54,691 bases of DNA from Girardia tigrina (taxonomy: Eukaryota): assembly GCA_001938485.1 (NCBI GenBank), contig MQRK01215702.1:1-54691 (forward strand), given 5' to 3'. The notes beneath the pieces were generated by a model. That model was given only the letters and a program-made list of their open reading frames with translations. It had not been told where the DNA came from and searched no databases. Both the position numbers and the translations under genes were made by a program. How positions within the stretch are numbered: the first letter of the stretch is position 1; every line of letters begins with the position of its first letter. This document shows positions 2,311 through 45,771 of this stretch, piece by piece.

Positions 2311-5300
2311 CTAATCATCTTCTTCCTCTCCTTCTTCCTCTTCCTCTTCAGCATCTTCGGCTTCTTCAGCTTCTTCTGCTTTTGCTTGATTTGCTCTAAA
2401 AGCTGCTTCGTCATCCGGGGTTGGATCTTCAATTTCAGTAATTTCTGGACCTGAAAGAAACTCAGTTTGGACTGGTGCCAACGAAAGGGGACTCAGATTT
2501 GGTGTAATATACTTTTGACCCCATCCAATATAAATATTATCAAACGTTCTAAATAATTAATTAATACCAATAAAATGAATATTAAATTAAAATAATCCAA
2601 CTTCCCCGTAGCAAAAGCGTGAGCTCCTGGCCACAAATTCGATGACATTATAGCAACAGCATATTGCTGCACGAGATTTGATGATAGTTTCGTCGACCAG
2701 GCCGGCATTCCATTAATTTCTTCATCTTCATTAATTGGTGTTAATAAAGGAGGTCCTGACTCTGGTTCTGGTTCATCCATTTCTTCTTTTTCTTCTTCTT
2801 CTTCGTCTTCTTCTGCTTCATCTGTATTTTTTGAAGCAGGATTCCACCTTTAATTGATTAAAGTGAATATTTTTATTAAAAATACTTCGGTATTTAAAAC
2901 ATAATTATTAAATTATTTGAGAGACAAATGAAATAGAATATCAAATATTTTCATCATTATAAGCGATTACTTGAATGTTCAATATGTATATGGATGAGGA
3001 ATAGATAAAATAATAATAAATAATATTTTAATAAAATCAAACAACTAAAAAATAGAATTTATATAAAAATATGTCTGTGAGGAATGCTTTGAATTGTGTG
3101 TTGATATTGTGCATGTTGTATGTTGATTCGGATTGTGCCTCTCCTGCACAGATGGATGATTCGTATTTTCTTTCATTCCTACTAATTAAAAATAATTTAA
3201 TTTAATTTTAAAGTAAAAAGATTTAAAATAATTTTTGAATGTATTATTTATTTTTTTAATGTAATTTAAAATTGTTAATATATTAATTTAATATGTTCTT
3301 TTTTAAAAAATGTTTAGATTTAATTTTTACCAATTAGATTCTTTATAATTAATAATTTTTATTAACAGATTTTCATTTATTGAAAATAATTAGTTTGAAC
3401 TCAGAAATATATTGATGAAGAAAAATGTCAAATAGTGAATGCGCTTGTGATATTAATAAATGTTGTAAAACTCATATTGATGTTGTTAATAATGTCCAAG
3501 TAAATGGTAATTCAGAGATTTATAAAACTAATAAAAAGTACAAAATATTGGAAAACGAAAAAAAGGATGTCGAGCGACCCTTTACTCAATTTTCGTCACT
3601 TGAAATAATAACTTTTTCAACAATTATTTCTTTTTTCTGTTATTTAGGCCTCATAAACCACTAAAATAATTTAAGGCAAAGTTTTAGAAAGTGTAGCTTA
3701 ATTCATATTAGCCACATCACAATTTGCATGAACATATTTATTTACAACTCAAACAAACTCGTTTTCGGAAGCACTTTCTGCGGGAAGCATGGATCTTGAT
3801 TAATATACTGAGCGACAAATTTTTTAAAACACTTGTATTATTAAAGAAATAAAAGAAAATAAACATTATTTTGAGTAATGAATGTAGTGAATCAAATAAT
3901 TTTGTCAAGTGTTATGTTTAGTATAAATGGAAATGGGTAAATCATTTTGTTTAAATAAATCATTTAAATATATTTATTACGTAAAAATTCAAAGTCGACA
4001 TATTTTTTAAAACAGTAAGATTTGTTATATTATTAAACGATTTACCCAGTTTAATTGTTATTAATTATAAATATACAGATATTTTCTGAAATTCTAAACA
4101 GAAATATGAAGTAATTTTGAAAGATATTTGGCAAAGAAGTGAAAAACGGAAGGGTTGAGTTATTTAGAGATTTCTAGAAGATTATCGATTTCTAGAATTT
4201 CGGCAATTAATCTTTGTCGATATAATAAGAAAAGATGTCTCAAGAACACAGGACCTCGACAAAAATTAATAAAAAATATGAAGTTATCAATTAAGAGGAC
4301 GATAGAACATTTGCAGTCAAATTTTCAAAAAATTAATTCGTCTAAATTGATTGCAGAATGCAATTTAAATTGTTCAATTCGAACAGTACAAAGACATCTG
4401 AAAGCTGTAGGTTACAAATATCAAAAAATTAAAGCAGAAATATCGTTATAAAGGAAGCAGAAGAATGATAGAATTGATCATATTTTTAGATGGATTAGCG
4501 AAAACCACAGTTGGGAAACGACAATATTTACGAATGAGAAAAGATTCACATTGGATGGGCTAGACGATTGGAGAACATATGTACAAAAAATCGAAAATAT
4601 ACTCGTCAAAAGCGCCAATTTAAAGGTGGTAGTGTTATGATCTGGATGATGGTTCTGCCTATTGAACTTCTTTCATACAAAATCATAGAATGAAAATTTG
4701 GATCTAAAGATTATAAGCAATTATTAATACATAAATCTATACCTATCATAAAACTTAACTGTGGTTAGAATTTCTACTTCCAGGAAGACAATAGTCCGTT
4801 TCATAAAAACAAACTTATAAAGGACTTTATGAAAGAAAGCGAAATTTCTGTACTTAATTGGCCTGCGAAAAGTCCAGCTTTAAATATTACTGGGGACATG
4901 TGGAAGAAAATATCCGACATTGTTTACGATGGCGCTCAGTATAAAAATAATTTTATGTTTATCCATCAAAAATGTCATACACTTGATTAACTCATCATTA
5001 TCGAATTGTATAGGTCAATAAGAAGTCGACTGCGCAAGATATTAAAAGTGAATGGAAATCTGTACAACAGTTTAGTGTCCTAGAATAAATATTACTGTTT
5101 TAAAAAATTTGTCGTTTTTAACTATGCATGAAATTTAATTTTTCAATAATTTTTTTAGCACAAATGCAATGTAATTAGTGACAAATTTTTATTTACTTTT
5201 TCTAAACCTTAAAATTTAAAATAACGCATAAAAATTTTAATATTTGTACATATCATTACGATATAAACTAAAGTGTAAGTGTGTTAAAAAATTTGTCACT

Positions 5301-5692: not shown

Positions 5693-6989
5693 CATCCCTT
5701 GATAGTTTTCTGCGAAATTTAATTAAAATTATAAAATTAAAAAAGTTTTAAATTTGATTGCGAATGATTTTTTATTTTTCAAATGTTGTGAACATTTCAC
5801 TGGATAAAAATTTCAAAATCAAAACTGCTTATAATGATTGATAATGATAATTAGTCTGAACAACAACATTAAATTCTAAAATGAGCCCAGTAGGAAGCAT
5901 CTAAGCTTAAAATTTTCCATCAGCGATGCACCTCTGCTACTACTGTCCGGTCTTCAGAGCAACATGTGGATCTGGCGGAAACAAGGGAATTCCTTGATAA
6001 CGGTTCATTTTATAAATAACTAAACAATGATGCAACACTGGATAATCGACAAAAAATATCAATTATTTCTGTTGTGCACTTGGATTCATGTTTCGGTTCT
6101 ATCAAAAAACGTATAGTAAACATTCAAAATAAATTATATTTCATTTTCGCTCCTGAGCCAATGGTACCCGTACGAAATAAAAGTCCCAAATAATCATCCT
6201 TTTTGCAGTGTATCCCTCTCACAGCTAGGGCATATCTCTTATAGTTCAACCAAATTGCTAATTAAAGAAAAATATTTTTCAGTCCCAGACAATGCCATGT
6301 TAAAAATAAAAAAAAACTCGAACAAAAATCAAAATGATATTTTCATTTACTGAAAACAATGAGTAGAATAATTGTCAAGAAAACATGAAGAATAAAGAAA
6401 CAATATAAATTATAATTATTTATATAATTTATAATATTATTATTGTTATTGTTATTATTATTAAGAACACCAACATGGCTTTTCGAACTTTTATTTTCAA
6501 TATAATTAGAATTGTCTTTTGGACAACTCTCAGCAAAACTTTCGTAGTTCGACATCGTTCTAAATTGATAAATTTTAGTTAATGTTTTTAATAAATAATT
6601 ATTCGAACAAATTTTTCATTATTTTCAGATTTTATTTTTAAAGTTCAAATTTTGTAATTTTAGTAATAATTTTATCTAAATATTAATTTTATTTAAAAAT
6701 GATTTTATTTAAAGAAAGAACATTTAATTAATTTAAAACTTAGTTAAAAGTTATTTACTTTATTTAAATTTTTAATATTAAAATTTGAAACGATTTTATA
6801 TTTTTAAGTTTTTTAAATATTTTATGCTGTACTTTAAAATGCAAATTATAATCGAATAACTATTCATCGTGAACATCTAAAATATCAATTTTCCATCTGG
6901 GTGGGAGAAACAAATTTCCAAATACTAAACTCAACATACAAAATTCAACAAACCAATTTCAACATCCCAAATTTAAAATATTCCTCACA

Positions 6990-8302: not shown

Positions 8303-11300
8303 CTGTATTACGTCGATTTAACGCCATGGCGTTTATTTCAAATGCTGATTCGAAGGTGCGGCGTTAAATCGAAGTAATACATAAAAATATATCACAATTA
8401 TATAAAAAATTTTTATTTTATTATTTTTTATTACATAAAATAAATACATCATGTCTGCTAATTTCGTTGATTTCGTTTTCCATTTTTGAAGTAAAATTCA
8501 TTTTTATTAGCAAAAATTAATAATTTTTATTTAAAAAACAAATTTTCCGATTCCTTTTTATTAAAAAGTTTGTAAAAATCGATTTGCCGACATTTATTTT
8601 AGTTTATACATTCTGATCAATTTTCAAAAAACACAAATTTCAAAATTTATATTTAGTTCGATTTATTTTTAATATTTTTCCATTCGTTTTATTAACTAAA
8701 ATTCTATATAGGTGTATTTATATGTATCCATGGAATTTAGAAACCTCTTTTTGAAGGCCTTCTACTCATTCAATTTTCTCCAATCTTTGCACATTTACCC
8801 ATTCTCAATGACAATAAATGATTATGTGAAAATTTGATCGAAAAAAGCTTTTTAAAATCCAAAAATGGGAAAAAAGCTTTTTAAAATCCAAAAATGGGAA
8901 AAAACGGAAAATTCGCAGTTCTCGAACAATATTAATTGCAAGATATCTGTGAGGGATAATTGTGAATGTTGTAAGTTTGTTGTTTTTATGCTGTTTAGAT
9001 TTGTGACTCTCTCCTACTCAGATGGGATTGATATGTTTATTGAGTGATTATTTGAATCTAATGAAATTAATTTTAAGTACTAATTAATTATAGTTTTATA
9101 ATTATGAATTTTAATAATATTTTTAGTAAAAGATTTTAAATTATTAAATTTAATATATTTTAAAAATTAATGTTCATTTAAAAAATTATGTAAACCCCTT
9201 TTCATCCAATAAAATTTAAGAAATTAAAACTTTATATTAAAAACTTTTCCATTCATTGTTTTTTTTAGATTTGAATACTTAAACGAAAACTATATCAATC
9301 AAAGAAAGATGACCTCTGAAAATTGTTGTGAAGAATCTGCTTGTGTTGTCAATAAATGTTTACATTCAAATTGTGATGTTGTTAATAATATCTATTGATA
9401 AATTATAAGTAGTTTATATTGATTTTTATTGTTTTTCTAATTAAAATTTTTTTAAATCCCTAATTTTTAAATTTTAAAAACTTTGTTGGCAAAGTAGAGT
9501 TTGGTCTGCATAAAGAATGGATATAAAAATTTTAATTTTTTCATTTACTAGTTTTATAATTGTTTTAATGTTTTATTGTTTATTATTAAATTTTAATGTT
9601 TTTTTACTTTAAAATTTTCAAAAAATTTATTTTATTACAAACTTATAAATAAAAATTTAACCTTAATTCGATTGTAATGTAATCTTTTTTTATCAAATAG
9701 TATTTACTGAAATTAAATTTAAAAAAAATTGCTTTAATATTTTAATTTTAAATATTTATAAAAGATTTTTAAATTATGTACTAAAATTTGAATCATTTCC
9801 AAATTATTAACCTAACCTATTTGTAAGCGAAATAAAATGAACTAACTCACCATACAACAAATGAATCACAAACGGAAAGGTAAACGATATCCTTAATAAC
9901 AACACAATTATCAGAAAAACTATAAATGCAGAAAGCAGCCAGTTCACAAATAAGTATCTTTACAGTTTTTTTTACTTACTTTGACATCTTTATTTATTTT
10001 TAGAAACATTATTTTTTCATTTTCCTTAAATTAGAAATAACAATCGGGTTGAAGATGATGTAACGGATTTAAATAGTTAGGTAAGATATATAGTGGCTCT
10101 ATTTCATTCTGTATATTTTGTGGAATGGTTGCTTTCTGCATAACCACGCTCAATTATGGAACACTTGAAAATAATTAAGCGAATGAAAAATCAAAATACA
10201 TTAACCTAAAACAAAATACACAAAGTTAATTGCTCAAATCCAATGATTATCTGATAATAATTTTAAAAAGATTCTTAAAACCAAGAAAGAAAATATAAAA
10301 TTAACTAGTTTTATTATTAAATGAAAAAAACATTAAATATTGTTCTGCTGTCCTTCGAAAATTAGTAAAGCACCAAATGTGTAGCGCATCACAGTTAATC
10401 TTTAATCGATAACGACATTATTTATTGGGATCCCTAATGATATTTAAAAGCTATATACGTTTTATATTTTGCATATTACGAAAAATTCTTAAATGTTTAG
10501 TTTAAAAATCCTTTCATTAAGTTATTTTATTTTTTGAAAAAGAAAACGTTATGGTTGAGTTAATAATACTCAATCAAATTTGTTGAAGGATAAATGTTAC
10601 CTAGGGTTATAAATCAAATGTAAAAGGGAATCATCTTATTACAAACAAGTCGAGTATTTCTGTGAATCATTATCAATAAGACACTAAATCCCAGTAATAA
10701 ATATTCAAAAGGGGGAAAGTGACGCTGTGTCAATTCTTAAAATCTTTAATAAATAAATAAATAAATTTTCCAAATAAGTCGAGCACTTCTTGCAGTGTAA
10801 AAGTTAAAAAAGATAAACTTCATTTCTTAAATTATTTGAAAACTGAAAAGAATAAAAGATTCACTTTGATTTGTATACTTGTTGGAATATTTGTTGTCAA
10901 GATCAACAGATCCCATCAATCCACGCAACATGTATTGCTATTGGTAGACTTCATTCCCAAAGGTTAATTTTTTTATTTAGAAACACGACTTTATTTTAGC
11001 AAAAATAAATAATGAATTATAATGATAATAATAAATCATCAATTAACATTACAGTAATCGTGTAATTGTAGATTTAAGATTCGTTCTATACACTTGAGAA
11101 TATTGGGATAATTTTGGTAATTATTTATTTCTTTCAGAAAAAAATAAAATTAATTTTAATAAAAATAAAATAAAATATTAAAATTATATAAATTTTAAAA
11201 AAAATAACAATAAAAAAAAGAGAAAAACAAATGGTTTATTTATGTTCCTAATAATGTCCTTATACTTTCCAAAGACGTTTCACAAGGTGGGTCTGACGGA

Positions 11301-18000: not shown

Positions 18001-21000
18001 TCTAAAGTTTAGATTCTAAACAAATGTTTTTAAAAATATATTTTCACTGAATTAAGCATCATTTTCAGCAGGAAATGTAATGGCACAAGAAATTGTCAAA
18101 AATTAAACCATTTAATGATGATAAGTTTGTTAAAGTGTACTAAACGTTGTAAACATAATTTAACTCGAAATAGAATCTGAATTTAAAGATAAAAGTTTGT
18201 CTAATATGATAATTCCTCGTGAAACATACCATCTCACAATTCAAGAACAGTTTAAAAAAAATCACAAACATTTGTGATTTTTTCATTAGTACTTTATGAA
18301 AGTAATGATATTAAAGATACTGCTTATCTTGTGATATTTATTCGTGGTATTACTCCAGATTTTAATATGATTGATGAGCTATTGTTTTTCTTTATGGTAC
18401 TGTAGCCGTTGGGCCGTGGGTGCACTCAAATATACACAAACATTATGGCTTGGGTTTGTATATATTTGAGTGTCTCAGTAGGCAAGGAACCTGGTGGCAC
18501 CTATCTCCTCTCCAGGTATGGATGGCCGTTGGCTCCAAGGAGCTCATCCTTCCTTTGCTAGGTTTTGTTTTTCATCCTGCTAGGTGTCCACACACCTCTT
18601 CACCCAGGTTGCTCTGGGTGAGGAAGCCGGTTTAGTCGCCAACTATTCGACCATGGACAGGTATTACAGGTTTACATGGTACCTGTACCAGATAAATTGT
18701 CTGACCGGACCTGTCAATGGCCCCGCGATTTCCCTATCGGTCACCCAAATAAGTACTAACTCGGCTGTTGGTTGCCTAACTTCAGAGATCGAACGAAATC
18801 CGACGTACCCAACTGCGGCTATTGATTACCATTTGTCTTAAGAAATAAGTATTTTCATTATCACTTCATTATAAACCATCAATCTCTTGAAGCGGCTGTT
18901 TTACAAATGAATCCTATCATGAATGGGGTTACTAAGACTGAGAATTTTATTAAGAGTAGTGAATTAAAGCAGCAGATTCCGCATTCTGGCACTTGGTTTA
19001 TGTGACATGTATTAGTTTTTTGAGATATTATATTATTTTCTAATAGTTGCACTACCCAATTTTGTTTGTCTTTGATTATTGCATAAACCGTTTATTAAGA
19101 ACATTTAGACAAGTCTCGTCTGAATATTTATTACAATCACATTTAGAGTCATTCTTATTTCTCTTTTAATCATGATTATTCGAACAGTTTTTCTAAGTAA
19201 TTTTTTTAATAAATTAATTAATATTAATTAAAAATAATAAATTTTACCATTTCTCAATAAATCCCAAATTATAAAAATATCATCATTAAAAATACATTAA
19301 ATTTAAATTATACCAAAAATATTAAACTTAATTTTAATTGTTAAATTAAAAATATGAACTTATCAAATGATTATTTTAATTATGTTCGAATAGTCAATCA
19401 CTTTAAATTTAAATAAAAAATACCAATTTCCATCTGGGTGGGAGAATCACCATTCTAAATTCAACATACTTAAATCAACATACAGCATTCATACATTTAC
19501 ACATTCAAACAATATAAAATATTCCTCACAATGACAATTAATTTCGACGGTATAACCGTCATCGTCAGGTCTCAAGAAAAAAATGAGTTTTAAATCTTCT
19601 TATAAAGCTATGAGATAATGACTCCTTATGACAGAAGGAATACGAACACTACCACATCGACATTATTTGTTGTGAATAAACAACTTGTATACTATGCACA
19701 TATTTGTTACATCTGTACATATTATGTAAATAAATGTTTGTTGAAAATACTCCTCTTATACATGCCTTCATTCAAAACCTTGTAAACAACAACTTTTATT
19801 ATATATATACACCAAAGCCCCGCTATGCGTTTATTCGTTATGCGTCTATTCGCTTTTGCGTCGATTGATTTTTTATTTTTTGCCATATATAATTTCAGGG
19901 AACTTTTCACAGCCACGGAAGGAATTGTTTATATTACAATGAAAACGTTCTGGACAAACTTCACTATATTAGATGGGATTAAATATATTGCAGGATCCTG
20001 GAATGAAGTATCCAACAAAAGCATAAACGGTTGTTAGCGTAAATTATGGCCGGAATGTGAACATAGCCCATTGGAAAATGACACGAATAATGATAGGATA
20101 ACTGCAATTAAAGAGATAGTTGACTTAGCATCCGCATTGCAAGTTGAAGGAATGGAGGTCGAAGACATAGAAGAACTATTGGATTCGCACAATGAAGAGA
20201 TAACAACTTCTCAATTAATGGAAATTGAATTTCAGACAGCACACAGTAGTGATTCTGAGGAAAGAATCGAAGATATTGCCGTAGAACAAACGTTAACGAC
20301 GAAACGTTTAGCTCAAGCTTTTCAATTAATTGATCAAGCTCTGCAGATATTTAATCAAGATGACCCTAATCACGAAAGAAGTTCGAGGGTAAACAGATCA
20401 GTTCTGGGTAGCATAAATTGCTATAAAGAAATTTATGCGGAAAAAAAGACAATGCACTACAAACCACTTTGGAAAAAATTTTTAAAAAGTAAATTTTGAT
20501 TTGGAAAAAAGTTTTGATAATTATATTTATAATACATACTTACTTTTTACTGATTTTATATTATTAATTAGTTTTAATGGATTAAGATCACAATTTTCGT
20601 ACTATTTCTTGATAAAGATTTGTCTTATTTTGATTTTTATTTAGATAGATATATTGTAATAGTCTTTCTGATCAAGATTACCACATATTCGTTATGCATC
20701 GGAACTCATTTAGCGTCTCAACTTTCGGAACCGAATAGAGACGCAAAGCAGGGCATTGGTATATATATATATATATATATATTTCGAAAATATAATTTGA
20801 ATAAAGCTTTGTTTATATAATTATTGGACATGTTTCGATGTTTATATACATCATCATCAGCAATTTGAAAACAATCAGAAATCAATCCCTCATAGAACCA
20901 TTCCTAACATTCATGAATGATCTTCATCCTAATATTAAATTTACCACAGAATTGGAAGTAGATAATAAACTTCCCTTCCTGGACATTCTTGTCACTAGGA

Positions 21001-27740: not shown

Positions 27741-28239
27741 TTTATTTTCAAGACAATTTGAATTGCCTTTTGGACAACTGTCAGCCAAGCTTTCAGAATT
27801 TGAAATCTTTCTAAATTGATAAATTTTTATTAATAAACAATTATTCGAACAAATTTTTATTATAAATCATTGCAGATTTTATTTTTAAAAATTCTACTTT
27901 AATAATTTCGGTAATAATTTTATCTAAAGTTCAATTAAATTTAAAAAATTATTTTATTTAAAGAAAAACATTTATTTACTTAAAATTAAAAACAAATTAA
28001 AAGTTATTTACTTTATTGAAATTTTTGATATCAAAATTTGAAGCAATTTAATATTTTAAAAGTTTTTTTTATATATTATGCTGTACTTTAAAATGCAAAT
28101 TATACTCGAATAATTATTCATCGTGAATATCCAAAATATCAATTTTCCATGTGGGTGGGAGAAACACATTTCCAAATACTAAACTCAACATACAAAATTC
28201 AACATACCAATTGCAACATACCAAATTTAAAATATTCCT
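27741..28239 (-). mobile_element. Eroded solo LTR, TGTGAGG family
   Basis: Colinear with 6459-6989 over about 500 bp; both termini lost. Confidence 0.8.
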
Positions 28240-30420
28240 AAGAGGGATAATAGTCTGTATTAGAAAGCTAACAAAAATCAGTTGATCATCATTTATTATC
28301 TATATATGTATAAGTACTATAGTAATATTACCCATATTTATATTAAACAATAGATTTTTATTTATATTATAGTAGGAATTTTCTTTCCTTTTTCATTCCC
28401 TAGGGGGACGTATTTTTTGAGTGACTGCCTCTAGTAGGTTAGAATTAGGTACAGAAAGTTTATATTATTGTGTGCTTATATTATTTATAAAAAACTGCTT
28501 AGTATTGTTATTAATACAATAAATAATAATTTTAAAATTTTAATGACAATAGCAATTAACGAATATTTTTCCATAGATAGTTTCATAATAAATTAGCTTG
28601 GATTCCGAAAATCCACAATTGACAACGTCGTTATTAGTGAATTGTTGTTGTCTAGGAAATAGTCGGGAATGTCTAATTTTTGCTTGTTGTTGTATGACTG
28701 TTTCTTGTTGTTTGTGCTAGTTATCAAGTTACTGTTGGGGTCCATTATTTGTGAGGGTCTGCTAGTTGTCGTCTTTTGTAGAGAGAATTTTTTTAAATTA
28801 TGTTCATTTTTCATTCTGACCCCAGCGTATTTATAAAGATAACATAGATGGCAAATGATGTATTTCGTCGAGACTACCTTTTAATAAATATTATGAATAA
28901 AAAAAATAATTAATTAAGGTAAAACAAATTTAATTGACAACAATTTTAATAACGGACTAATAAAAAGAAAAATAATATCACAAATACTGAGGAAGGGAAA
29001 TGGTTAACAATATAGAGAGTTCAAATGCATTTTTCAATTATTTTATACTTCGAATGTAAACTTTTGGCTGTTTGTTTGAGAATTGTTTGTTGTAATATGG
29101 AAACTAATCAATATCTACTTTCAACTAGCGATCGTATATGTATCCCCATGATTGAGAATATTATTTATACAATGTCGGATGATATTGTTCACAAAATTTC
29201 GAATAATAATTATTCTGGGAAAAGGTGATAATTTCGTCCACGTAATGGCGAACAAAAGGTATATAAATGTTTAATCAGAGACTACTTATAACATTGCTAA
29301 TAACATTTTAAATTATTATTTTTTATTTTATTAATGATTTTTGTAAGTAGCGTTTATACCACTTTCATTGATATCACATTCCGAAGTCATAATTTAACAG
29401 TACAAAATTTATTAATATCAACAATTCACATACTTAAACAAATTTCTTATTAATTCAATTATTTCGCCAAAAATTAATTCATAATTTTTTTCGATTAAAT
29501 TTTGAAAATTTTCGAAATTTAAACTTCACATTATACTTACATTTTTTTACGAAAATTTTACAAAATTCAAATTTTAAATTATTTTACATTTTTCAAATTA
29601 AACTTCAAATTATATTTAAATTTTTTACGAAAATTCTACTGTGATATTAAATGAATTATTTAATTAAATATGAAATTCGAATAAAAAGTGCTTGTTTAAA
29701 TATTGTAAAAATTGTAGTTTTTCAAATATATGTTTAGTATTATTAAATCTTAATTTTTAATTCGATTTTATATAACATGGCGACAAGATCAGAAAAACAG
29801 TTTCATGGAGGAATTTTTGTTTAAAGAAAAGGAATTTAAAAATTTGTTTTTGTTTTTAAAAAACATTCAGCGAACCAAACGAAAATTAGAGAACACGTGA
29901 AAAATGTGTTGGAATTCATCAAATTATTTACGTTTGGTGAAAACGAAAAAGGATGAATTGCAACTTTTCCAAAAATATTTTGATGATGAAATCAATAAAG
30001 AAATCAAAAACGATCCATCATACGATGTTGGATCCGAAAATCTTGATGATTACTGTGAGGAATATTTGGTGTGTGGATGTTTTTGTGTAGTTTTTGCATG
30101 TTCAAATGTTGTATGTTGATTTGGGATTGTGCCTCTCCTAACCAGATGGATTATCAATATTTAATTTTTTATAATCTGAAACTAATTTATTTAAATTTAG
30201 ATTTAATATTCAATTTTTTAGTTTTTATTATTGAAACTTTTAAATAATTTTAATGATTTGATTTTTGTAAATTTTTAAATAATTAAAATCAAATTAATGT
30301 TTAAAAATGACTATAAAAATATTTTATTTTAGCCAATCAAATTTAAATTAAATATTTTTAAATAAAATAATCTTATCAAGTATAGTTTAGATTATAATGG
30401 GAGATATTGAAAATTGATTG

Positions 30421-31560
30421 ATGGATTCTAGTGAAACCAATAATATTGATCATCATAAAGATGATAAAAATTGTGAATGTAATAAATGTTCTGTCAAATG
30501 TGTGAGTTCTCTTAACATGGTGACTTCACACCACGTGACTCCGAACATCAAAGGTCCAGAAACATTCAATGGATCCGAGCACAAGTTAGAAGAATTCCTG
30601 ATAAGTTTTAACAGGTATTCAAAGATTATGGGATTATCAGAGGAGAGAAAAATCCTACTGGTAACACCCTACATGACTCCAGAGGCGATTCTGAGATACG
30701 AGAAGGCCCCAGGGAGTACTTGCGAAGAGAAAATGCGAGCAGCATTTTCAAAAGAGAAATCTATTTTGGATTTGATGAAAGATCTCATTGAGTTATGAGT
30801 AGGTTGCGTGACCCGTCATTTGCGTTCCGCAAAGCAGATGAGATAATCGAAAAATTAGTGAAGAAAAAGTTTGGTAAGAAAGAACTATCAAACTTGGTCT
30901 ATGCTAATATGATTGATGATGATAACTTCGATCAAGAGATAGCGATTCGAGATGTAACAAAGGTAGAGAAAATCGAAAACATACAAATGAGGATGTATGA
31001 ATATGGGAAAAAGAAAAGAAATTCACCGATTGCAGCATATAACACAAGGAAAGAAAACGATTGGAAAACTGTGGAGAATAAAAGAAGAACACCAAAACTA
31101 CGGAAGGACGATGAAAGAGAGACGGTACAAGTCGAAACTATGAAGTCAGAGAAATAATTTGTTGGGCATGCCATGAGGAAGGTCATGTTAGAAGAGAATG
31201 TCCGAACGTTAAGTGTAGTCACTGTCAAAGAAGAGGACATTTACGAACACAACGTTATGAAAACCCAAATAGGTTTAAAGAACGTGACCAACGCAAATGG
31301 GACAATAATAGAAATCATTGGAATGACAGGAGAGATTATTCTAATCAGAGATATAGAGAACGACCGGCATATATGAATAAGAAACAACACTTGGCGGAGT
31401 TAGACGACAGAGATGATGAAATGTATAGGAGATCGGAAATGTCTGTTAGAAGATAAGAGAATACAACAGGAGATTATTCTAGAGGTAAAAGAAGATCCGG
31501 AGACGAACAGGGAAACGAGGACGCACGATCACAAGGGGAGGTGATCAGTGTGCTTCATTA
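30421..31560 (+). pseudogene. Inner Gypsy gag (frameshifted)
   Basis: ORF pieces 30418-30798 and 30795-31157; CWACHEEGH and CSHCQRRGH zinc knuckles. Confidence 0.85.
31510..31553 (+). promoter_or_regulatory. -1 programmed ribosomal frameshift signal (gag-pol)
   Basis: G GGA AAC heptamer in the gag frame, 6-nt spacer, stem GCAC-GATCAC/GTGATC-A-GTGTGC; the -1 frame runs uninterrupted into the protease ORF at 31579. Confidence 0.7.
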
Positions 31561-34500
31561 GAAACCAAATGTAAATGTATGTTTGATTGTATGTATGAAT
31601 GTGTGTGTGATTGTATGTTTGATTTTACGGATGGAAATATTTCTCAAGAGATGTGCGAACTTGAATGCAAAGATATTGTAAATCGAGAACAGTGTAATTG
31701 TATGACAACTCAAGATGATAAGAAACTAAATGGTAAAACGGAAATATTGAAGATATCAAAGTTTAAGATAAATTATAAAGAACTGAATGGACGTCCATGT
31801 GTGGATTTTTACGTGAAAGATAGAAAACTTCATTGCCTTTTGTACACTGGAGCAAGAGTAAATGTAATTAAAGCGGAGATAATTAAAAACATGAAAGATA
31901 TTAAAATAAGAGAAACGAAAAAACGTATCCATTGCGCAAATGATTCAGGACTGATCAATTATGGAATCGTTCAATTAAATGTGGCTATTGAGGGAACAGA
32001 AAAGTTAATAGAATTTTATGTGGTTAAAGAACTAGACCCCGAAATGATCGCAGGTATAGATTTCTTGGATAAATTCGGAATAAAACTGAAAAGACAGATA
32101 CCTCGAGGTGGAGAAATATTGGTGATTAGAGACAACCCATCAGATGAGGACAGACAAAGAAGAATAATGGATATATTTGGCAAGCAAATTGACGGGTAAT
32201 TAATGAAGATTCTAGCAAATTATAAATCAGTATTCATGGCTGATAAGTGCGATATTGGGAAAACATCATTAACAAAACACAGAATAGAAACACACGGGGA
32301 TCCAATACTAGTAAAACCTTATCGTCAACCAAAACACTTTGAGGACAAATTGGATGATGTTATTAAAAATTTCGAAGAAAATGACATAATCGAAAAGTGT
32401 AGCTCACCATGGAATTTCCCNNNNNNNNNNNNNNNNNNNNNNNNNNNNNNNNNNNNNNNNNNNNNNNNNNNNNNNNNNCAGTTGAATAGAATTACCGTCA
32501 GGCCAGCGTTTCCTATGCCAAATGTAGATGACATGCTGAACACACTGAATGGTGTGCAATATTTTAGTACAATTGATCTTGGGAACGCGTATTACCAAGT
32601 CGATTTGGAAGAAGAATCAAAGATTAAAACAGCATTCTCAACAAGGAACGGACAGTATTGTTTCAAAAGAATGCCGTTCGGGATAGCAGCAGCCCCAGCA
32701 ACTCTCCAAGAGCTAATGGTCAAAGTCCTAGGAGATTTAAACTGGAAAGAGGCAGTAGTATATTTGGACGATATTTTGGTTTTTGCAAAAAATAAAGAAG
32801 AGCATATGCAACGAATAAAAAATGTACTGGAAAAAATAAAGGAAGCAGATTTAAGAATTAACCCAGAAAAGTGTCAATTTTTAACAGAAAGAACAAAATT
32901 TTTAGGATATATTGTCAGTAAGAATGGTATTGAAACTGATCAAACAAAGATTGAAGCCATTAAAAAATTTCAGAACCCATCATGCATCAAACATCTGAAA
33001 AGTTTCTTGAGTCTAACAAATTACTACAGAAAATTTTTAAAAGATTACGCAAAATACTCAAAAGTATTGGAGGGTTTATGTGGTAAGAATAAAGACAAGA
33101 AAATAATATGGACTGAAGNNNNNNNNNNNNNNNNNNNNNNNNNNNNNNNNNNNNNNNNNNNNNNNNNNNNNNNNNNNNNNNNNNNNNNNNNNNNNNNNNN
33201 NNNNNNNNNNNNNNNNNNNNNNNNNNNNNNNNNNNNNNNNNNNNNNNNNNNNNNNNNNNNNNNNNNNNNNNNNNNNNNNNNNNNNNNNNNNNNNNNNNNN
33301 NNNNNNNNNNNNNNNNNNNNNNNNNNNNNNNNNNNNNNNNNNNNNNNNNNNNNNNNNNNNNNNNNNNNNNNNNNNNNNNNNNNNNNNNNNNNNNNNNNNN
33401 NNNNNNNNNNNNNNNNNNNNNNNNNNNNNNNNNNNNNNNNNNNNNNNNNNNNNNNNNNNNNNNNNNNNNNNNNNNNNNNNNNNNNNNNNNNNNNNNNNNN
33501 NNNNNNNNNNNNNNNNNNNNNNNNNNNNNNNNNNNNNNNNNNNNNNNNNNNNNNNNNNNNNNNNNNNNNNNNNNNNNNNNNNNNNNNNNNNNNNNNNNNN
33601 NNNNNNNNNNNNNNNNNNNNNNNNNNNNNNNNNNNNNNNNNNNNNNNNNNNNNNNNNNNNNNNNNNNNNNNNNNNNNNNNNNNNNNNNNNNNNNNNNNNN
33701 NNNNNNNNNNNNNNNNNNNNNNNNNNNNNNNNNNNNNNNNNNNNNNNNNNNNNNNNNNNNNNNNNNNNNNNNNNNNNNNNNNNNNNNNNNNNNNNNNNNN
33801 NNNNNNNNNNNNNNNNNNNNNNNNNNNNNNNNNNNNNNNNNNNNNNNNNNNNNNNNNNNNNNNNNNNNNNNNNNNNNNNNNNNACTGTCAAAAAAGAAAG
33901 ACTTTAACCACAAAAACGAAAGAAAGTTTTATTAAACAATTTGCTGATGAACCATTTCAAAAGCTGTATATGGATTTTTGCGGACCATTTAAAAGGACTT
34001 TGGATATCAATATATATTAGCTATAATTGATCAATTTAGCAGGTATATAAGTCTAAATGCTGTAATTCATCAAGATAAGAAAACTACTCGGAAGGTACTA
34101 CTGGAAAGATGGATTTGGAAATTCGGACCAACAAAAGAGATCCATGTGGATAGATGTAAAGCATTCGAATCGACACTCTTCAAAGATACACTGAAGAGAT
34201 TTAAAGCATAAATAATTTATTCCAGTCCTTATCATCACAATATCAATGGCATCATTGAAAGACAAATAAAATAAGACGGAAATATTGCCAGAAGTAGAAT
34301 TTATGATGAACAGCACAATTCAAGCTACCACAGGAATCTCACCAGCAGAAATTATATTTGGTAGGAAGCTAAGACATTGGTGGAAAGATACTAAGAAACA
34401 GAGTTGTAATAAGAAAGAAAAGAGCGAAAATACGATAGAGACAAAACGAATATTTCATACAGAGGATAAAGTGTTGATAAAAAAAGAAAATGCTACAAAG

Positions 34501-34638
34501 GAAGAAGATCGATATATGGGTCCAGCCACAGTAAAAAGCAGAAGACATGAAAGAAGTTATGAATTGGAGCTAGATGATGGTAGAATTTTGATCAAAAATA
34601 TGGAATGGCTAAAGCTATTTAAATCGAGGGGGATGTGA
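31510..34638 (+). pseudogene. Inner Gypsy pol (PR-RT-RH-IN), disrupted
   Basis: ORFs 31579-32199, 32203-34020, 34285-34638; RNaseH lies in an N gap. Confidence 0.9.
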
Positions 34639-35097
34639 GGAATATTTGGTGTGTGGATGTTTTTGTGTAGTTTTTGCATGTTCAAATGTTGTATGTTGAC
34701 TTGGGATTGTGCCTCTCCTAACCAGATGGATTATCAATATTTATTTTTTTATAATCTGAAACTAATTTATTTAAATTTAGATTTAATATTCAAATTTTTA
34801 GTTTTTATTATTGAAACTTTTAAATAATTTTAATGATTTGATTTTTGTAAATTTTTAAATAATTAAAATCAAATTAATGTTTAAAAATGACTATAAAAAT
34901 ATTTTATTTGAGCCAATCAAATTTAAATTAAATATTTTTAAATATAATAATATTATCAAGTATAGTTTAGATTATAATCGGAGATATTGAAAATTGATTG
35001 ATGGATTCTAGTGAAAGCAATAGTATTGATCATCATAAAGATGATAAGAAATGTGAAGGTAATAAATGTCCTGTCAAATGTTTGAGTTCTCTTAACA

Positions 35098-38000
35098 ATT
35101 ACATTCAACGAATGTTTAAATTATTAGAAAAGAAGGAGTCAAAAATAAGCAATATCAAACCAATATTTCAGATAATTCAGAATAAAAATGAAAATATCAT
35201 CGAATACGCCAAAATAATACGCATAGGAAGTTTAGGAATAAAAGAAATCAAGGAAGATATAATGATCGAAGCTTTCTTGGAAGGTTTGGCATATAAGAAA
35301 ATCGCAAAAATTGTCCGGTTATTTAAACCAAAAACATTAGAAGAAGTGATTGACCTTATAAAGGACGAGCAAGAACCAGAAAATATTTTCGAGAATGGCC
35401 AAAATTTTTATTACATTAAAAATGATCAGGAAAGTTTGAAACTGCTGAAACTTGAAAATGAAGAACTTAAGAATGAGATACGACAATTGAAATCGATAAT
35501 ATCGAGAATAAGAGAAAAACCACAGCCAAGAAAATATGATCCAGTAAATATGACTGGAAATTTCCCTAAATATTCTATGGATAAAAGAGAGTGTTTCACC
35601 TGTAAAAGGATAGGACATATTGCTAAATTTTTCAGGGAACGCAAATGTTACGGTTGTGGAGCGACAAACCACGTAATTCGGGATTGCGGAATAAAACGAT
35701 TAAGATATTTTCAGGAAGATGAGCAAGAAGTTTTAAGTAACGGGCCATCAGAGAAGGAGAATACTGAATTGCAGGATAATCAAATTAATATGATAAACAA
35801 GTCAGAATGGAACAAAGGAAAGTCAAAGGCCATTTTTATGAACAAACCAATGTTGGAAGAAGCATATAGTAATTATATTCACGGTCAAGGAGCGCTACCA
35901 AAAAAGAATCTGTATAAGTAGGAACCGACGTTAATATCAGAATCAAGACCCGAGAAAGCGAGAAATAAACCGATTGTTCAGTGTAATATGGCGAATATGC
36001 CAGTCAAAGTCATTCGACACAGGTGCTGACTTAAATGTCATCAGTCATGAGTTGGTGGAGAAGATTTGTGAACGAAATCCAGACGTAAACATTTATGATT
36101 CAAGAAAGATAACATGTGCAAATGGTACTACGGAAGAATGCATAGGAAAGGTTCAACTTAATGTGGCAATCGGACCACATATTACAGCCCATGTTTTCGA
36201 CATTATGCCTAAAATATTTCCCCACATTTTCTAGGACTACACAACTAGGAGGGTCCGCGTTGGGGGGTCGTAATGCGGGATACAACCGGATAGAGACTCA
36301 AAATATCGAATTATACAAAATTATTGTATCAGATAATGTTACTACGAGTGTTTATGAAGATTATTTTATTAAAGGAATGATAGTGGACAGTTACAACGAA
36401 AGAATGAGTGATGAAAACCGATAATTTATTTTTACAGGAGAAAAAGAGAAGCTCAGCGAAAAAGGCCTGATGGCAATGGATAGCCTTATCAAATGTTATG
36501 ACGGATATGTTTGGATCAGATTAACTAATATTGAAGGAGGAAGAAGACAGATACGTACTAGGATAATCTTGGGTTATGTAGAGTTATATCATGAAGATGA
36601 ACAAACGACAGAAAAAAAGATCAATATACAGCCTATCGAAGGAGAATCAGAAAAAAAGAGGAAATCGCAATTGAAGAAACGCTGAAGAGCATTAACGAAT
36701 CCATTAAAGCACCGAACGAACAGGCAAGAAATAGCCTAATGGAAATTATACGGGCAAATAAAGATATTTTTAGTACGTATAGACTGGATATCAGGAAAAG
36801 TGATCGAATTGAACACACCATTGAGACCGAAAATGAAAAGCCAATTAATTTTAAACCTAGAAGGATACCCCTGGGACTTGAACAAAAAGTGCAAGTAATG
36901 ATCGAGGAAATGGAAAAGAAAGGAATTATCAGACCTAGCACGTCCGCTTGGAACTTTCCAGTCGTAGTGGCTAAGAAAAAGAATGAAGATATTCGACTAT
37001 GCGTAGATTATAGAGCCCTGAATGCGAAAACAAACAGACCGATATTTCCAATACCATCTTCAGAAGAGATTTTCGATAGTATTGGGGGATCTAAATATTT
37101 TTCTACTCTCGATATATCAAGTGGGTATCACCAAGTACCAGTTGCAGCAGGAGATGTACATAAGACTACATTCAGTACCAGACACGGTCAATACGAGTTT
37201 CTCAGAATACCATTTAGGTTATGTGGTGCCCCTGTAACCTTTCAGAGATTAATGAACTTAATTTTAAGAAAAGAAAATTGGATCAACTGTGTTATATATC
37301 TTGATGATATTTTGATTTTTGGAAAGACGATAGAAGAACACAATCAAAGGTTAGAAATGGTGTTATCGAGAATAAAACAAGCAGGACTAAAATTAGCTCC
37401 AACAAAATGCCAGTTTATGCAAACAGAGATAAAATATTTAGGTCATGTAATCAACGAAGATGGCGTGAAGACAGATCCTGAAAAATCAAGAGCATTAAAG
37501 AATGGAAGTTACCAGGCTGCAAAAAAGAATTACAGACATTCTTAGGATTTTGCAACTATTATCGCAGGTTTATCAAGGATTATGCTATAATGTCTAGTCC
37601 TTTAAGTTCGATGTTAAAAAACGATTCGAAATTTGTGTGGACAGACGAATCGAGAAGTATGTTTTACAGACTCAAGGAACATCTCACACAACCTCCTGTT
37701 TTAGCTTTACCTATAAAAGACGGTAAATATATGTTAGATACGGACGCATCCCATGATGCAATTGGTGCAGTGTTATCACAAATCCAAAATGGAGAAGAAC
37801 GAGTTATTTATTATGCCTCGAAAACACTTACTAAGAGCCAGAGACAATATTGTATTACTCGAAAGGAACTGTTAGCAATCCATACGTTTGTTTTGAAATT
37901 TAAACATTACTTGATAAGATCACATTTTCTTGTCAGGACGGATCATCAGGCACTAAAATGGCTTTTAAACTGGAATAGCCCAAACACATCACAGTACTGT

Positions 38001-39567
38001 ATTTGGAAATCAGAACTGGAAATATTTGATATGGAGATAGAAATTCAGAAAAGGAAAGGACCACAAGAATGCCGATGGTCTTTCAAGACCAGCACCATGT
38101 GAACAGTGTGCCCTACATCATGAAGATCCAAAAAAAAGAAACGTAAAAGAATATCACCCAGTGTACATAGAAAATGGAAAAACTCACAGCGAGTATTCGG
38201 AAACAGAATAACGAGAGTCCAAACGAGTGGGAGCAGGAAACAGATGAAGAGTTACGGAAGTTACGGAATCCAATAACTTACAAAGACGAGAAAAAGAAAT
38301 ATCAATCCGGTGGACATGAAATCAGAATTCGTGGGGACATTATATATTTATTTAAGGATGGAATCTATAGAGTGATAGTGCCAAAACACAAAAGACAGGA
38401 AATAATTTGGAACTACCACCGACAATTGGGACATCCAGGAATAGAAAAAACAGCAGATGTTATTGCAAGAAATCATTACTGGGTGAACATGGTTGAAGAC
38501 GTAAAAGAAACATTAAGTAAATGCATACCATGCATTAGAAACAAAAATATCGATGGAAGAATTAGAGCTCCATTACAGAAGTAATCGGAATAGATATCAC
38601 AGGACAATTTACAAGTACGAGGAAGAGATACCGATACATCCTTGGTGTGATTGACTATTTCTCGAAATATGTATGCTTAATACCGATGAAGACAATAACA
38701 GCAGAAAAAGTGATAAAAAATTTATGGATTCATTGGATATCAAAATTTGGGATTCCAGAACGAATACACTCGGACAGGGGTACTAATTTTACATCAAATT
38801 TATTTATTGAACATTGTCGAGCACTGGGAATAAAGAAGACTTTCACTTCGCCATATTATCTACAGGGAAATGGATTAATAGAAAGGTTGTTCCAAACGGT
38901 AAAACTGATGATCAGCGCAGTGATGGAGGAAAGAAAGATTGAAGACTGGAGTGAAACACTACCATTCATAGAACTGGGAATACGAACAACAAAGCAAAAA
39001 ACCACTAAGTATTCCCCATACGAGGTGTTGTTTGGACGCAAACCAAGAATCAACTTCATTCACTCTGAGCCCTTCTCGGACACGGAATATCACAGCACTG
39101 ATGAATATGTGAATGAAATGAGAAGTAAGATAAAAATAGTTCACGAATTCGTTACTAGAAATTTGAGGGACCAAAATGTTAAAGATAGATTAAGGTATGA
39201 CAATCATCGAAGGAACGCAAAACTACAAGTCGGACAGAAAGTTATGGGCAAAAATCAAGGAGCATAAGGCTTTGAAAATAAATACATTGGGCCATTCGTT
39301 ATCAGGAGAATTATTGACGACTGGACATTCATTTTATATCATGAAGGGGTGAATAAAGAAATACAACGTAACTACAACCAGATCAAAGAAGTGAGAGAAA
39401 CCGAAGATCAGAGTGGGGAAACAAAGACTCAAACCAGTATACGAACTTGGAGAATAAAGTGCAATGAAACTGCTCAGGTCAAAGAGAGAAGATACCCGAC
39501 CAGAAGTACGCGGAATCCAACACCGATATACAGATGGTTTCGAAGAGGGGAATGTGATATTAAATGA
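35098..39567 (+). pseudogene. Outer Gypsy gag-pol (3' part), disrupted
   Basis: CFTCKRIGH and CYGCGATNH knuckles, FDTGAD, RT 36739-37545, RNaseH 37590-38102, integrase 38174-39267. Confidence 0.92.
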
Positions 39568-40856
39568 ATTATTTAATTAAATATGGAATTCGAATAAAAA
39601 GTGCTTGTTTATATATTGTAAAAATTGTAGTTTTTCAAATATGTTTAGTATTATTAAATCTTAATTTTTAATTCGATTCAATTATTTTATATAACATCTA
39701 CAAAATCTAAACCTTAAATTATTTTACATTTTTCTACGAAACTTTATCATAAAAACTAATTAATTTAAATTTACAATAGACCCTTTTATTAAAAAAAATA
39801 TTTCTTAAATATTAATCCGTTAATTATTTATTTCATATTTATTAAAACTTATTTCAAACATTTATCAAAATATATCAATTGTTGTTACTGTAAACATATT
39901 TTAAATAAGTATTTATTTAATCATATTTTTACTCTACATTTTAGTTCTTTAATTTATTTCTTTTAAATTTTCAAATCAAAAAAACAATAAATTATTTTTG
40001 CGAAACTTAAATTTAAAACTAACCCTCATAATTTTAATAATCTGATAATTAATTTCATCATTCATTATTCATTACTTAACATATTTATATATATTTTTTG
40101 GTGATAAGAAAAATAAAAAGAGAAAATAGCAAACACTAATATATTATTTTTATTGAGAGTAGTTGGTCACTAAAAATGAGTTGTACAGGGTTTTTCTCCC
40201 TAACCTACTTTCTTACGCTAAAGTGAATGTTCTTTTCAAAAAAGAACAAAATTTCACTATTTTCACTCAACTATCAAATTCATTATCGTTCAGAATTCTA
40301 CATAAATCTTACAGTAACATTGGGTTCTTGATCAATAGAAGAAGTCATTAACGCAAAACTTTATTTCTAACAAACAATGATTTTTTAAACAAATTTTGGA
40401 GGAACAATGTTTCATTTTTAGCACAACCAGATATCCCATTTAAAATATAAATATTGATATATAATTTTATTTAATTTAAATTTTATACTTTAAGTATAAT
40501 AAAGTATAGTTTTAAATTTTTTAAGGAAATTAAATCCCAATCTGTTTTTTTTATTTTATCATACTTTTGTAACTTCTATTATAAATTAATTTTCTTAAAA
40601 ATAAACTTCTCTTATCATTATTTATAAAATAAAAATTTAAAGAGATTCATCGACGTAATATTTTTTTGATCGATTAGCTTCCTCTTACTTGTACAATTTC
40701 TTTTTAGAATATACATAAAATAATGAACAATAACAAAAACTATCATTTCCATGGTTCAAAAAGTATCATACTAATTATGAGTATCAATTACATATTATAA
40801 AAAAATATTTCATAAACTCGTGTGTTATTAAAGACCTAACAATCCTATCTGTAGTG

Positions 40857-42094
40857 ACCTACCTAATCACTGTTATATTTATATATAAATATACATAAAA
40901 ATTAAATATATAAATATAAATATAATTATTAACTATTGATTCAATGAAAAATAATAAGCAATAAAAAAATAATGAGATCGAATCTTACCAGTAACTACAA
41001 CGTTCGGAATCTGTAAAATCAAGGAAACTAAAGATTTTGTTTTGGAAGAACAATTTTGTTTTATTTCCCCCGATGATTTATGAACAATTTCTGTTTTTAT
41101 CAGATCTACGTTTTTGATTAATTCTTTATTAAGACAAAATTTCCACGATAATCTCAATCATACCATATCTCTATTCGTCATCTATGATTTCTTCGTCACT
41201 GTGAGGAATATTTTAAATTTGGTATGTTGAAATTGATATGTTGAATTTTCTATGTTGAGTTTAGTATTTGGAAATGTGTTTCTCCCACCCACATGGAAAA
41301 TTGATATTTTAGATGTTCACGATAAATAATTATTCGAGTATAATTTATATTTTAAATTACAGCATAAGATATTTAAAAAACATTAAAAATATTAAATCGT
41401 TTCAAATTTTAATATTAAAAAATTTAAATAAAGTAAATAACATTTAACTAAGTTTTAAATTAAATAAATGTTCTTTCTTTACATAAAATCATTTTTTAAA
41501 TAAAATTAATATGTAAATAAAAATTATTACTAAAATTTCAAAATTTGAACTTTAAAAATAAAATCTGAAAATAATGAAAAATTTGTTTATTAAAAACATT
41601 AACTAAAATTTATCAACTTAGAACGATGTCGAATGACGAGAGTTTTGCTGAGAGTTGTCCAAACGACAATTAGAATTGTATTGAAAATAGAAATTCGAAA
41701 ACCAAAATTGGTGTTCTTAATAGTCACAACAATTCTATATATATTTAATCGTTATGTTAATTACGATCAATTGTCAAGTAACTATTCATTTTCAAAGTTA
41801 AATAGTTTATTAATTAAAAATATACTTTGATTAATAATAGTTTTGCTATTGCTATTCTTATATTATTGTTTGAGTAAAAGTGAATTAAATCAAACCACCT
41901 AGACTTCCGATCAGTTCACTTTTAACCATTGGAGTCAGAAGTTGGATTTGAGCTATTCCAAACGTTGTAGGTACAGTTGAAATTCCATCTCATATTTTTT
42001 TATTGCTTATTACTTTTTATTGATTTAATAATTATATTTATATATTTAATTTTGATTTATATTTATGTATAAATATATTAGTGACTAGGTAGGT
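40857..42094. repeat. About 150-bp diverged inverted repeat pair (40857-41010 / 41955-42094)
   Basis: ATTCC(G/A)AACGTTGTAG...ATCTCAT...TTATTGCTTATTA...GTGA(T/C)TAGGTAGGT present on opposite strands. Confidence 0.65.
41200..41722 (+). mobile_element. Solo LTR, TGTGAGG family
   Basis: TGTGAGGAATATTTT...GTTCTTAATA; exact TSD GTCAC. Confidence 0.88.
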
Positions 42095-44076: not shown

Positions 44077-45771
44077 ATTACATTTACTCTTGCTCCAGTG
44101 TCCAAAAGGCAATGAACTTTCCTATCTTTCATGTAAAAATCCACACTTGGACGTCTTTCCAGTTCTTTTTAATTTATCTTAAACTTTGATATCTTCAATA
44201 TTTCCGTTTTACCATTTAGTTTCTTATCATCTTGAGTTGTCATACTATTACACTGTTCTCGATTTACAATATTTTTGCATTCAAGTTCGCACATCTCTTG
44301 AGGAATATTTTTATCCGTAAAATCAAACACACAATCACACAGATCTTCTTTTACCTCTAGAATAATCTCTTGTTGTATTCTCTTATCTTCTATCAGACAT
44401 TTCCGATCTCCTGTCCATTTCATCATCTCTGTCATCTAACTCCACCAAGTGTTGTTTTTTATTCATATATGCCAGTCGTTCTCTATACCTCTGCTTAGAA
44501 TAATCTCTCCTGTCATTCCAATGATTTCTATTATTGTCCCATTTCCGTTGGTCACGTTCTTTAAAATTATTTTGGTTTTCATAACATTGTGTTCGTAGGT
44601 GTCCTCTTCTTTGACAGTGGCTACACTTAACGTTCGGACATTCTCTTCTAACATGACCTTCCTCATGGCAGGCCCAACAAATTCTTTTGACTTTATGATT
44701 TCGACTTGTACCGTCTCTCTTTACTTCGTCGTTCCGTGGTTTTGGTGTTCTTCTTTTAATCTCCACAGTTTTCCAATCATTTTCTTTCCTTGTGTTATAT
44801 GCTGCAATCGGTGAATTTATTTTCTTTTTCCCTTATTCATACATCCTCATTTGTATGTTTTCGATCTCCTCTGCCGTTGTTACACCTCGAATCGACGTTA
44901 TCATCGTCAATCAAATTAGCATAGACCAAGTTTGATAGTTCTTTCTTATCAAACTTTTTCTCCACTAATTTTTCGATTATCTCATCTGCTTTGTGAAACG
45001 CAAGTGACGGGTCACTGCAATTTACTCTTAATTCTATGATATCTTTCATCAAATCCAAAATAGATTTCTCTTTTGAAAATGCTGCTCGCATTTTCTGTTC
45101 GCAAGTACTCCCTGGGGCCTTTTCGTATCTCAGAATCGCATCTGGAGTCAAGTAGGGTGTTACCAGTAGAATTTTTCTCTCCTCTGATAATCCCATAATC
45201 TTTGATTACCTGTTAAAACTTATCACGAATTCTTCTAATTTGTGCTTGGATCCATTAAATGTTTCTGGACCTTTGATGTTCGGAGTCACGTGGTGTGAAG
45301 TCGCTATGTTAAGAAAACTCACACATTTGACAGAACATTTATTACATTCACATTTCTTATCATCTTTATGATGATCAATAGTAATGCTTTCACTTAGATC
45401 CGTCAATCAATTTTCAATATTCTCTCATTAGAATCTGAACTATACTTGAAAAGATTATTTTATTTAAAAATATTTAATTTAAATTTTATTGGCTGAAATA
45501 AAATATTTTTATTGTCATTTTTAAACATTAATTTTATTTTAATTATTTAAAAATTTACAAAAATAAAATCAATAAAATTATTTAAAAGTTGCAATAATAA
45601 AAATTAAAAATTTGAATATTAAATCTAAATTTAAATAAATTAGTTTCAGATTATAAAAAATTAAATATTGATAATCCATCTGGTTAGGAGAGGCACAATC
45701 CCAAATCAACACACAACATTTAAACATGCAAACACTACACAAAAACATCCACACACCAAATATTCCTCACA
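44077..45771 (-). mobile_element. 3'-truncated second copy of the inner Gypsy (5' LTR, gag, start of protease)
   Basis: LTR 45307-45771; gag highly similar to 30418-31500; protease LLDTGARVNV intact, then truncated; the frameshift region is deleted. Confidence 0.92.

Follow-up and report, generated by a model that had tools for sequence, protein, structure and literature searches.

In Girardia tigrina, the gag reading frame of a Ty3/Gypsy retrotransposon family opens at an ATG inside the 5' long terminal repeat (LTR) and continues over the LTR boundary and through the primer-binding site as far as the capsid. This in-frame ATG is a real, conserved feature: it recurs, 22-32 codons from the LTR end, in nine diverged subfamilies (A-I). 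We consider it probable that Gag is initiated there, the LTR end doubling as coding sequence and the extra 22-32 residues forming a tolerated tail. The family is described here from a focal copy in a window of 54,691 nucleotides (the whole stretch of DNA that was analysed, contig MQRK01215702.1) and from further copies in the 1.43 Gb, A/T-rich host genome.

The focal copy is an element of the 5-kb class (5,044 bp, 30054-35097) flanked by two direct LTRs, which were paired by self-BLAST of the window among the matches listed (Table 1). It is nested in the gag of an outer Gypsy element (29639-39707) with LTRs of about 140 bp; the gag frame of the latter opens at a junction ATG (29777), without an LTR leader, and served as a control. 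A purine run, the polypurine tract, lies directly before the 3' LTR at 34634. The final pol frame of the focal copy (34623-34638) crosses this tract and stops 3-5 nt into the 3' LTR, so that between its LTRs this copy lacks an untranslated stretch on either side. Among solved structures the reverse transcriptase (RT) best matches that of Ty3 (E 9e-45; next family 1e-26). Pfam matches in the focal pol come in the order protease then RT, with integrase-like text recognised by eye beyond them, and the RNase H stretch is an N gap (33119-33883). Gag has two CCHC arrays and no Pfam match; its top fold matches are weak (Copia, dArc1 and Ty3 capsids, E 0.02-0.05), and its atlas neighbours are the Retrotrans_gag and Ty3_capsid clusters. 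The CCAAT box-like motif upstream of the leader may act in the promoter.

Table 1. Features of the focal element and of related LTR copies in the window.
Feature	Position	Strand	Remarks
Left 5-bp target-site duplication, ATTAC	30049..30053	+	Right copy 35098-35102
5' LTR, subfamily A, 464 bp, TG...CA	30054..30517	+	97% identity to 34634-35097; duplication ATTAC
CCAAT box-like motif	30333..30337	+	81-104 nt upstream of leader ATG in 5/8 subfamilies
Upstream micro-ORF, 6 codons, gag frame	30397..30417	+	Stop 3 nt before leader ATG; typical of subfamily A
gag, capsid and two CCHC knuckles	30421..31561	+	Focal copy broken from about 30795 onward
LTR-encoded in-frame Gag leader, 32 codons	30421..30516	+	Predicted disordered
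AATAAA, likely poly(A) signal, coded Asn-Lys	30481..30486	+	Position kept in 7/8 representative copies
Second in-frame ATG	30517..30519	+	Last LTR base and first two primer-site bases; 2342 junction matches vs 0 control
Primer-binding site, in reading frame	30518..30524	+	Complementary to tRNA-Arg(ACG); adjoins LTR
pol: protease, RT, assembly gap, integrase-like end	31489..34638	+	Broken
G GGA AAC heptamer, candidate -1 frameshift site, gag/pol	31510..31516	+	From reading frames; QGNE in 7/10 close Gags
3' LTR, 464 bp	34634..35097	+	14 mismatches vs 5' LTR
Solo LTR, subfamily B, ends TA	3076..3491	+	ATG 3425, 22 codons; duplication ATGTC
LTR 3' end	3706..3790	-	28-codon leader with one stop
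Solo LTR, subfamily D	6459..6989	-	ATG 6555, 32 codons; within AAT microsatellite
Solo LTR, subfamily C, ends TA	8948..9387	+	ATG 9309, 26 codons; duplication ATATC
LTR, subfamily E type	19093..19530	-	Leader ATG lost by deletion
Solo LTR, subfamily D	41200..41722	+	32 codons with one stop; duplication GTCAC
Second, partial subfamily A element	44077..45771	-	LTR 45307-45771, ACG for leader ATG; broken gag

The first-pass annotation of this DNA had placed the gag start inside the 5' LTR, and rightly so: the ATG at 30421, at 97 nt from the LTR end, is in frame with gag, the 32 codons running to CTT AAC A|TG GTG and then into the capsid frame. It had also read AATAAA in frame as Asn-Lys about 35 nt from the LTR end. 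The distance is in fact 37 nt (40 nt in subfamily E and 43 in I; the single F representative copy lacks the hexamer), and the Asn-Lys coding is limited to subfamilies A-I, because three further families, J, K and L, have the signal ahead of the leader ATG, at a distance of 10-18 nt. The bias towards NNT codons was correctly noted as well, with T at 0.61 of third positions versus 0.24 of first and 0.21 of second ones; in the upstream LTR, T content by codon position is flat (0.39/0.37/0.37).

The conservation of this arrangement was assessed on three samples. A junction-pattern search of the genome contigs returned the 2342 matches of Table 1, from which 90 junction loci were read (the 30 first listed and 60 picked for flank length from the other 70 listed) with the LTR frame ignored; to these were added 120 LTRs similar to four window copies and 25 loci of a more distant Gag. 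The nine subfamilies come from these samples. From A to I their leaders count 32, 22, 26, 32, 31, 32, 32, 32 and 26 codons, and the 3706 copy adds a length of 28. The leader ATG is found at the expected site in 165 of 192 copies of A-H, with small support for F, G and H (5, 7 and 1 copies), and at 10 of 14 junctions of I. Over the last 22 LTR codons, the gag frame is stop-free in 61 of 75 copies, against 37 and 0 for the other two frames, 15 of the 90 loci having been left out for a short flank, N or a poor LTR match. The same count gives 5, 8 and 4 of 75 for the three frames of the upstream LTR, 69 of 75 for gag itself, and a stop-free fraction of 0.08-0.18 per subfamily for dinucleotide shuffles. 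Frames of at least 20 codons led by an ATG occur in 49 of 75 copies in the gag frame, versus 9 and 0 elsewhere.

Five subfamilies with 32 codons can be aligned without gaps over 96 nt. They are 44-75% alike per codon position; of the 32 triplets, the ATG, one AAT and the AAT within AATAAA are the three that never vary. Among variants common to at least three copies, the 621 leader nt show 0 stops and 0 frameshifts, and the 672 nt upstream show 11 non-triplet indels; within subfamilies the indel contrast is not significant alone (p=0.16-0.18), and copy counts overstate independence because copies of one subfamily are related. The earlier proposal of a dual-coded LTR end with a fast-evolving Gag leader is supported by this conservation of frame and ATG.

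The layout extends to more distant relatives. A profile search gave 147 new Gag matches, and 71 were inspected, the other 76 (weaker, mostly knuckle-only or partial) being uncounted. The junction motif is visible in 56 of the 71, and 46 of these 56 have an in-frame extension of 3-38 residues, as read from gene calls, which tend to take the furthest upstream ATG, the LTR location having been checked only for the families in the host genome. Asn ends 41 of the extensions, and the chance of an ATG before a stop is 0.05-0.22. Asn, Ser, Glu, Thr and Asp abound in these leaders, whose sequences are unrelated among the 46. Gag starts at the junction in the remaining 10, which are dispersed over a tree of 58 Gag proteins (leaders excluded, FastTree, midpoint root); we claim no order of gain and loss, because scattered leaderless proteins may be effects of gene calling or contig ends. 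Short leaders of 8-18 codons are found in families J (11/11 copies), K and L (2 copies each), and a single genome holds leaders of 0, 8, 10, 15-18 and 22-32 codons.

The first-pass annotation overlooked that A|TGG at the junction spells an ATG of its own. Because LTR and primer site adjoin directly, the final LTR base and TGG together make a second in-frame start codon, with A at -3 and G at +4. The sequence N-M-A-T is invariant at this point in 10/10 close Gag clusters, which is no sign that its Met is a start, because the LTR end and the primer site dictate those codons. In another family, M (3 copies), and in the outer Gypsy (0/20 copies with a leader), no in-frame start other than the junction ATG was seen, and such leaderless relatives likely start there.

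The primer, judged by sequence, is tRNA-Arg(ACG). The focal site, TGGTGAC, is a minority form of the family's TGGCGAC; a tRNA-Arg(ACG) gene is present in the genome, and six aberrant copies carry a 16-18-nt copy of this tRNA after the LTR. Given the latter, tRNA-Arg(TCG), with an 8-nt match, was dropped as a candidate. We also discarded a primer site in two parts, 8 nt and GTGAC separated by a 9-nt bulge, as neither host tRNA-Arg continues so. The six copies (L284, L286, L296, L300, L309 and L312) belong to subfamilies A, B, D, F and G, and the tRNA copy takes the place of the original primer site; where L300 and L309 return to gag, they do so out of frame. They are likely by-products of reverse transcription.

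If Gag starts at the LTR ATG, transcription would begin a few tens of bases upstream of it, and the LTR end would, as follows from such a start, form the 5' leader of the mRNA. The ribosome would then start at the LTR ATG and translate poly(A) signal, LTR end and primer site before it reached the capsid. T/G-rich poly(A) elements would bring in out-of-frame ATGs, selection would keep the first ATG in frame, and the leader sequence would be set mostly by needs at the RNA level. Out-of-frame ATGs do occur between the two in-frame ATGs, 20 in all and 1-4 each, in 7/8 representative copies. In the leaderless family, two of three copies have no ATG in the last 100 nt (2.9 expected). The third has 2, and the outer Gypsy LTR has one at -47 although it has no leader; both count against this reading. 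The out-of-frame ATGs between the two starts favour initiation at the LTR ATG, because they would be expected to be purged if ribosomes scanned to the junction and would be harmless if initiation lay upstream; the purge argument is one that we infer from cap-dependent scanning.

The main difficulty for a start at the LTR ATG is subfamily A, that of the focal element, where the ATG has a weak context (T at -3 in 32/34 copies) and the upstream in-frame micro-ORF (ATG in 33/35 copies, TGA in 32/35) has a stronger one. A purine at -3 of the leader ATG in 7/8 subfamilies carries little weight, the DNA being A-rich. Contigs from public runs (8 of 17 listed) cover the whole LTR, with solo-LTR flanks as loose ends, and may hold DNA; among the matches listed in them there is no poly(A) tail.

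A translated leader could also have a job of its own, for example as a Cys-rich lipid or metal anchor, with long and short Gag made by leaky scanning; this is possible, though we hold it to be unlikely. The eight representative leaders contain 28 Cys, many of them in CC or CxC pairs. Both start codons are conserved, that at the junction in the context given above, the distant leaders are rich in the five residues listed, and pairwise dN/dS is about 1 or below in 9/10 comparisons. There is, on the other hand, no invariant Cys column among the five alignable subfamilies, and leader lengths range over 3-38 residues. The first-pass annotation had called the leader fast-evolving and Cys/acidic: the fast evolution stands, but the Cys richness is local (1.3% Cys in the 46 distant leaders) and fits a G/U bias at the RNA level, because 27 of the 28 Cys codons are TGT. 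UGUA elements were rejected as the cause of these codons, only 6/28 being in a TGTA context. The junction Met, forced by the LTR end and the primer site, is uninformative as to its use, and the version with two starts faces the out-of-frame ATGs that intervene between them.

Amino-acid constraint on the leader is weak: the dN/dS check suggested with the first description gave 0.54-2.5 between subfamilies. Non-synonymous divergence (pN) is 0.28-0.51 in the leader versus 0.13-0.28 in the capsid, and shared non-synonymous/synonymous variants number 37/15 in the leader (p=0.21 versus singletons) and 8/9 in the capsid (p=0.006). Constraint is evident at the nucleotide level: T occupies 38 of 58 fourfold sites in the leader versus 12 of 76 in gag, and leader pS is below gag pS. 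In the predicted structure, residues 1-40 have a pLDDT near 48 and the capsid part exceeds 80, the fold beginning about 8 residues past the junction ATG; the leader is thus predicted to be a disordered tail. These observations fit selection that keeps a start codon, an open frame and signals in the RNA, not one that keeps a peptide motif. Metaviridae commonly have an AATAAA close to the LTR end that is followed by a GT-rich stretch (PMC3601003, in excerpt).

We regard as unlikely that Gag starts at the junction ATG, with the LTR ATG and its frame serving as a promoter or RNA element, or with the transcript beginning downstream of the LTR ATG. Such a start would suit the leaderless family M and the outer Gypsy, the position of the predicted capsid fold, the weak context and micro-ORF of subfamily A, and a TCAAT/AGAA motif found immediately upstream of the leader ATG in several subfamilies. 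A DNA motif, however, needs neither a gag frame kept across five lengths nor the absence of stops and non-triplet indels. For R to form, the transcript of an LTR element has to begin before AATAAA, and A-E, G and H have out-of-frame ATGs beyond that hexamer.

A bolder scenario holds that a widespread, undescribed Gypsy clade moved its 5' control region (poly(A) signal, integrase end and primer site) into translated sequence, that ribosomes shield the primer site from silencing by 3'-tRNA fragments, and that the two ATGs yield a long, membrane-anchored and a short, capsid Gag. We find this quite unlikely. Silencing of endogenous retroviruses by 3'-tRNA fragments through a primer site in the 5' UTR is described in the part of PMC7472051 that was available, and extending it to the leader family would be speculation by analogy.

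Finally, that the open frame is a by-product of a T/G-rich, triplet-like LTR end inherited from a single ancestor is very improbable and largely refuted: the +1 frame is also often open (the 37 of 75 copies above) and the subfamilies share ancestry, but shuffled sequences are rarely stop-free, the ATG is one of the few invariant triplets, the equally A/T-rich LTR end of the outer family has stops in the gag frame, and 46/56 distant Gags carry leaders of unrelated sequence.

The other LTR copies in the window had been cited as keeping the same frame. The leader peptides quoted for the copies at 3425, 9309 (given as 9310) and 6555 are correct, as is the ACG at the leader-ATG position of the 45307 copy. 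Of the single lesions reported in three others, those at 41200 and 3706 are indeed one stop each, and that at 19093 is a deletion that removes the ATG. Truncated copies of the same clade without an intact 3' end lie at 27743-28247 (-), about 5340-5630 (-) and about 22420-22490 (-). The LTRs of B, C and D have TG...TA ends in 82/89 copies (L031-L120 set), and those of A have TG...CA in 30/30.

It had also been suggested that solo LTRs scatter ATG cassettes through the genome. Such cassettes are real in form but weak in effect: in 74 copies of B-D (solo or 3' LTRs) whose leader is intact, the frame ends a median of about 8 codons beyond the LTR (maximum 72), which makes these copies poor gene starters. 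An ORF of 307 codons (34998-35921) was rejected as a single gene, since it is the leader of the 3' LTR (ATG 35001) read into the gag of the outer element; it arose by chance nesting, and the window has no other long fusion. Any effect of solo LTRs on host genes looks small. The window also contains an exon of a radial spokehead-like host gene (16304-16873, -; Pfam PF04712, E 4e-66), an open frame at 20038-20499 that we take, by eye, to be a DNA-transposon relic, and another at 21273-21827, presumably a GIY-YIG (Penelope-like) relic by the same reading.

If the LTR ATG is indeed the start of Gag, a large Gypsy clade translates the end of its LTR in the manner of Ty1, a case of convergence between the two big LTR superfamilies, and annotation that places the gag start after the primer site misses the N-terminus. 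The series of leader lengths in one genome provides a natural test of how a poly(A) signal, primer binding and translation share about 100 bases. Our literature search found no description of an LTR-encoded Gag leader in Gypsy elements; Repbase and GyDB, which lay outside this search, may hold cases.

Among known systems, glyco-Gag of gammaretroviruses is alike in that two in-frame starts give an N-terminally extended Gag. Its start is a CUG downstream of the primer site, outside the LTR, and its product is a membrane glycoprotein. LTR-supplied start codons are not mentioned in the available part of PMC5131818. The length of about 5 kb, the primer site directly after the LTR and the TG...TA ends recall Spoink, a Micropia-Mdg3 element (PMC10965091, in excerpt), and the two CCHC arrays recall the Micropia/Mdg3 group (PMC2577118, likewise). 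We do not file the focal element there, because the GIGG flap (PMC2577118) was not found in its protease translation, read by eye, and its target duplication is 5 bp versus the 4 bp of Spoink (PMC10965091). The excerpts of these two sources do not mention a gag start in the LTR. With Ty3 and other Metaviridae the family shares the gag-pol layout, the RT, a short primer-site match and, as far as weak fold matches indicate, a capsid-like fold. The Ty3 primer site lies beside the 5' UTR and is contrasted with the in-gag site of Ty1 in the accessible text of PMC4974528. Unlike in Ty3, the gag frame here opens within the 5' LTR, and the pol frame of the focal copy closes within the 3' LTR.

Tca5 of Candida albicans is a Copia-type element. 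It has a similar layout according to the portion of PMC4139406 available, but differs from the Gypsy family in its single ORF, initiator tRNA-Met primer and low copy number; a test of conservation does not appear in that portion. Ty1 (Saccharomyces cerevisiae, Pseudoviridae) likewise has its GAG start inside the 5' LTR and its primer site within the GAG frame (PMC4974528, in part). From its 334-bp LTR, a construct from nt 241 that holds R and U5, and a 53-nt 5' UTR (figures in the excerpt of PMC5454406), arithmetic would put the Ty1 AUG about 40 nt inside the LTR. Ty1 belongs to the other superfamily, whereas the RT here is closest to that of Ty3, and it is primed by initiator tRNA-Met rather than tRNA-Arg(ACG). 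By analogy, the Gypsy family would work like Ty1 without belonging to the Ty1 or Tca5 families, and it differs from Ty1 in that the leader has up to 32 codons, the frame includes AATAAA, and the junction supplies a second ATG.
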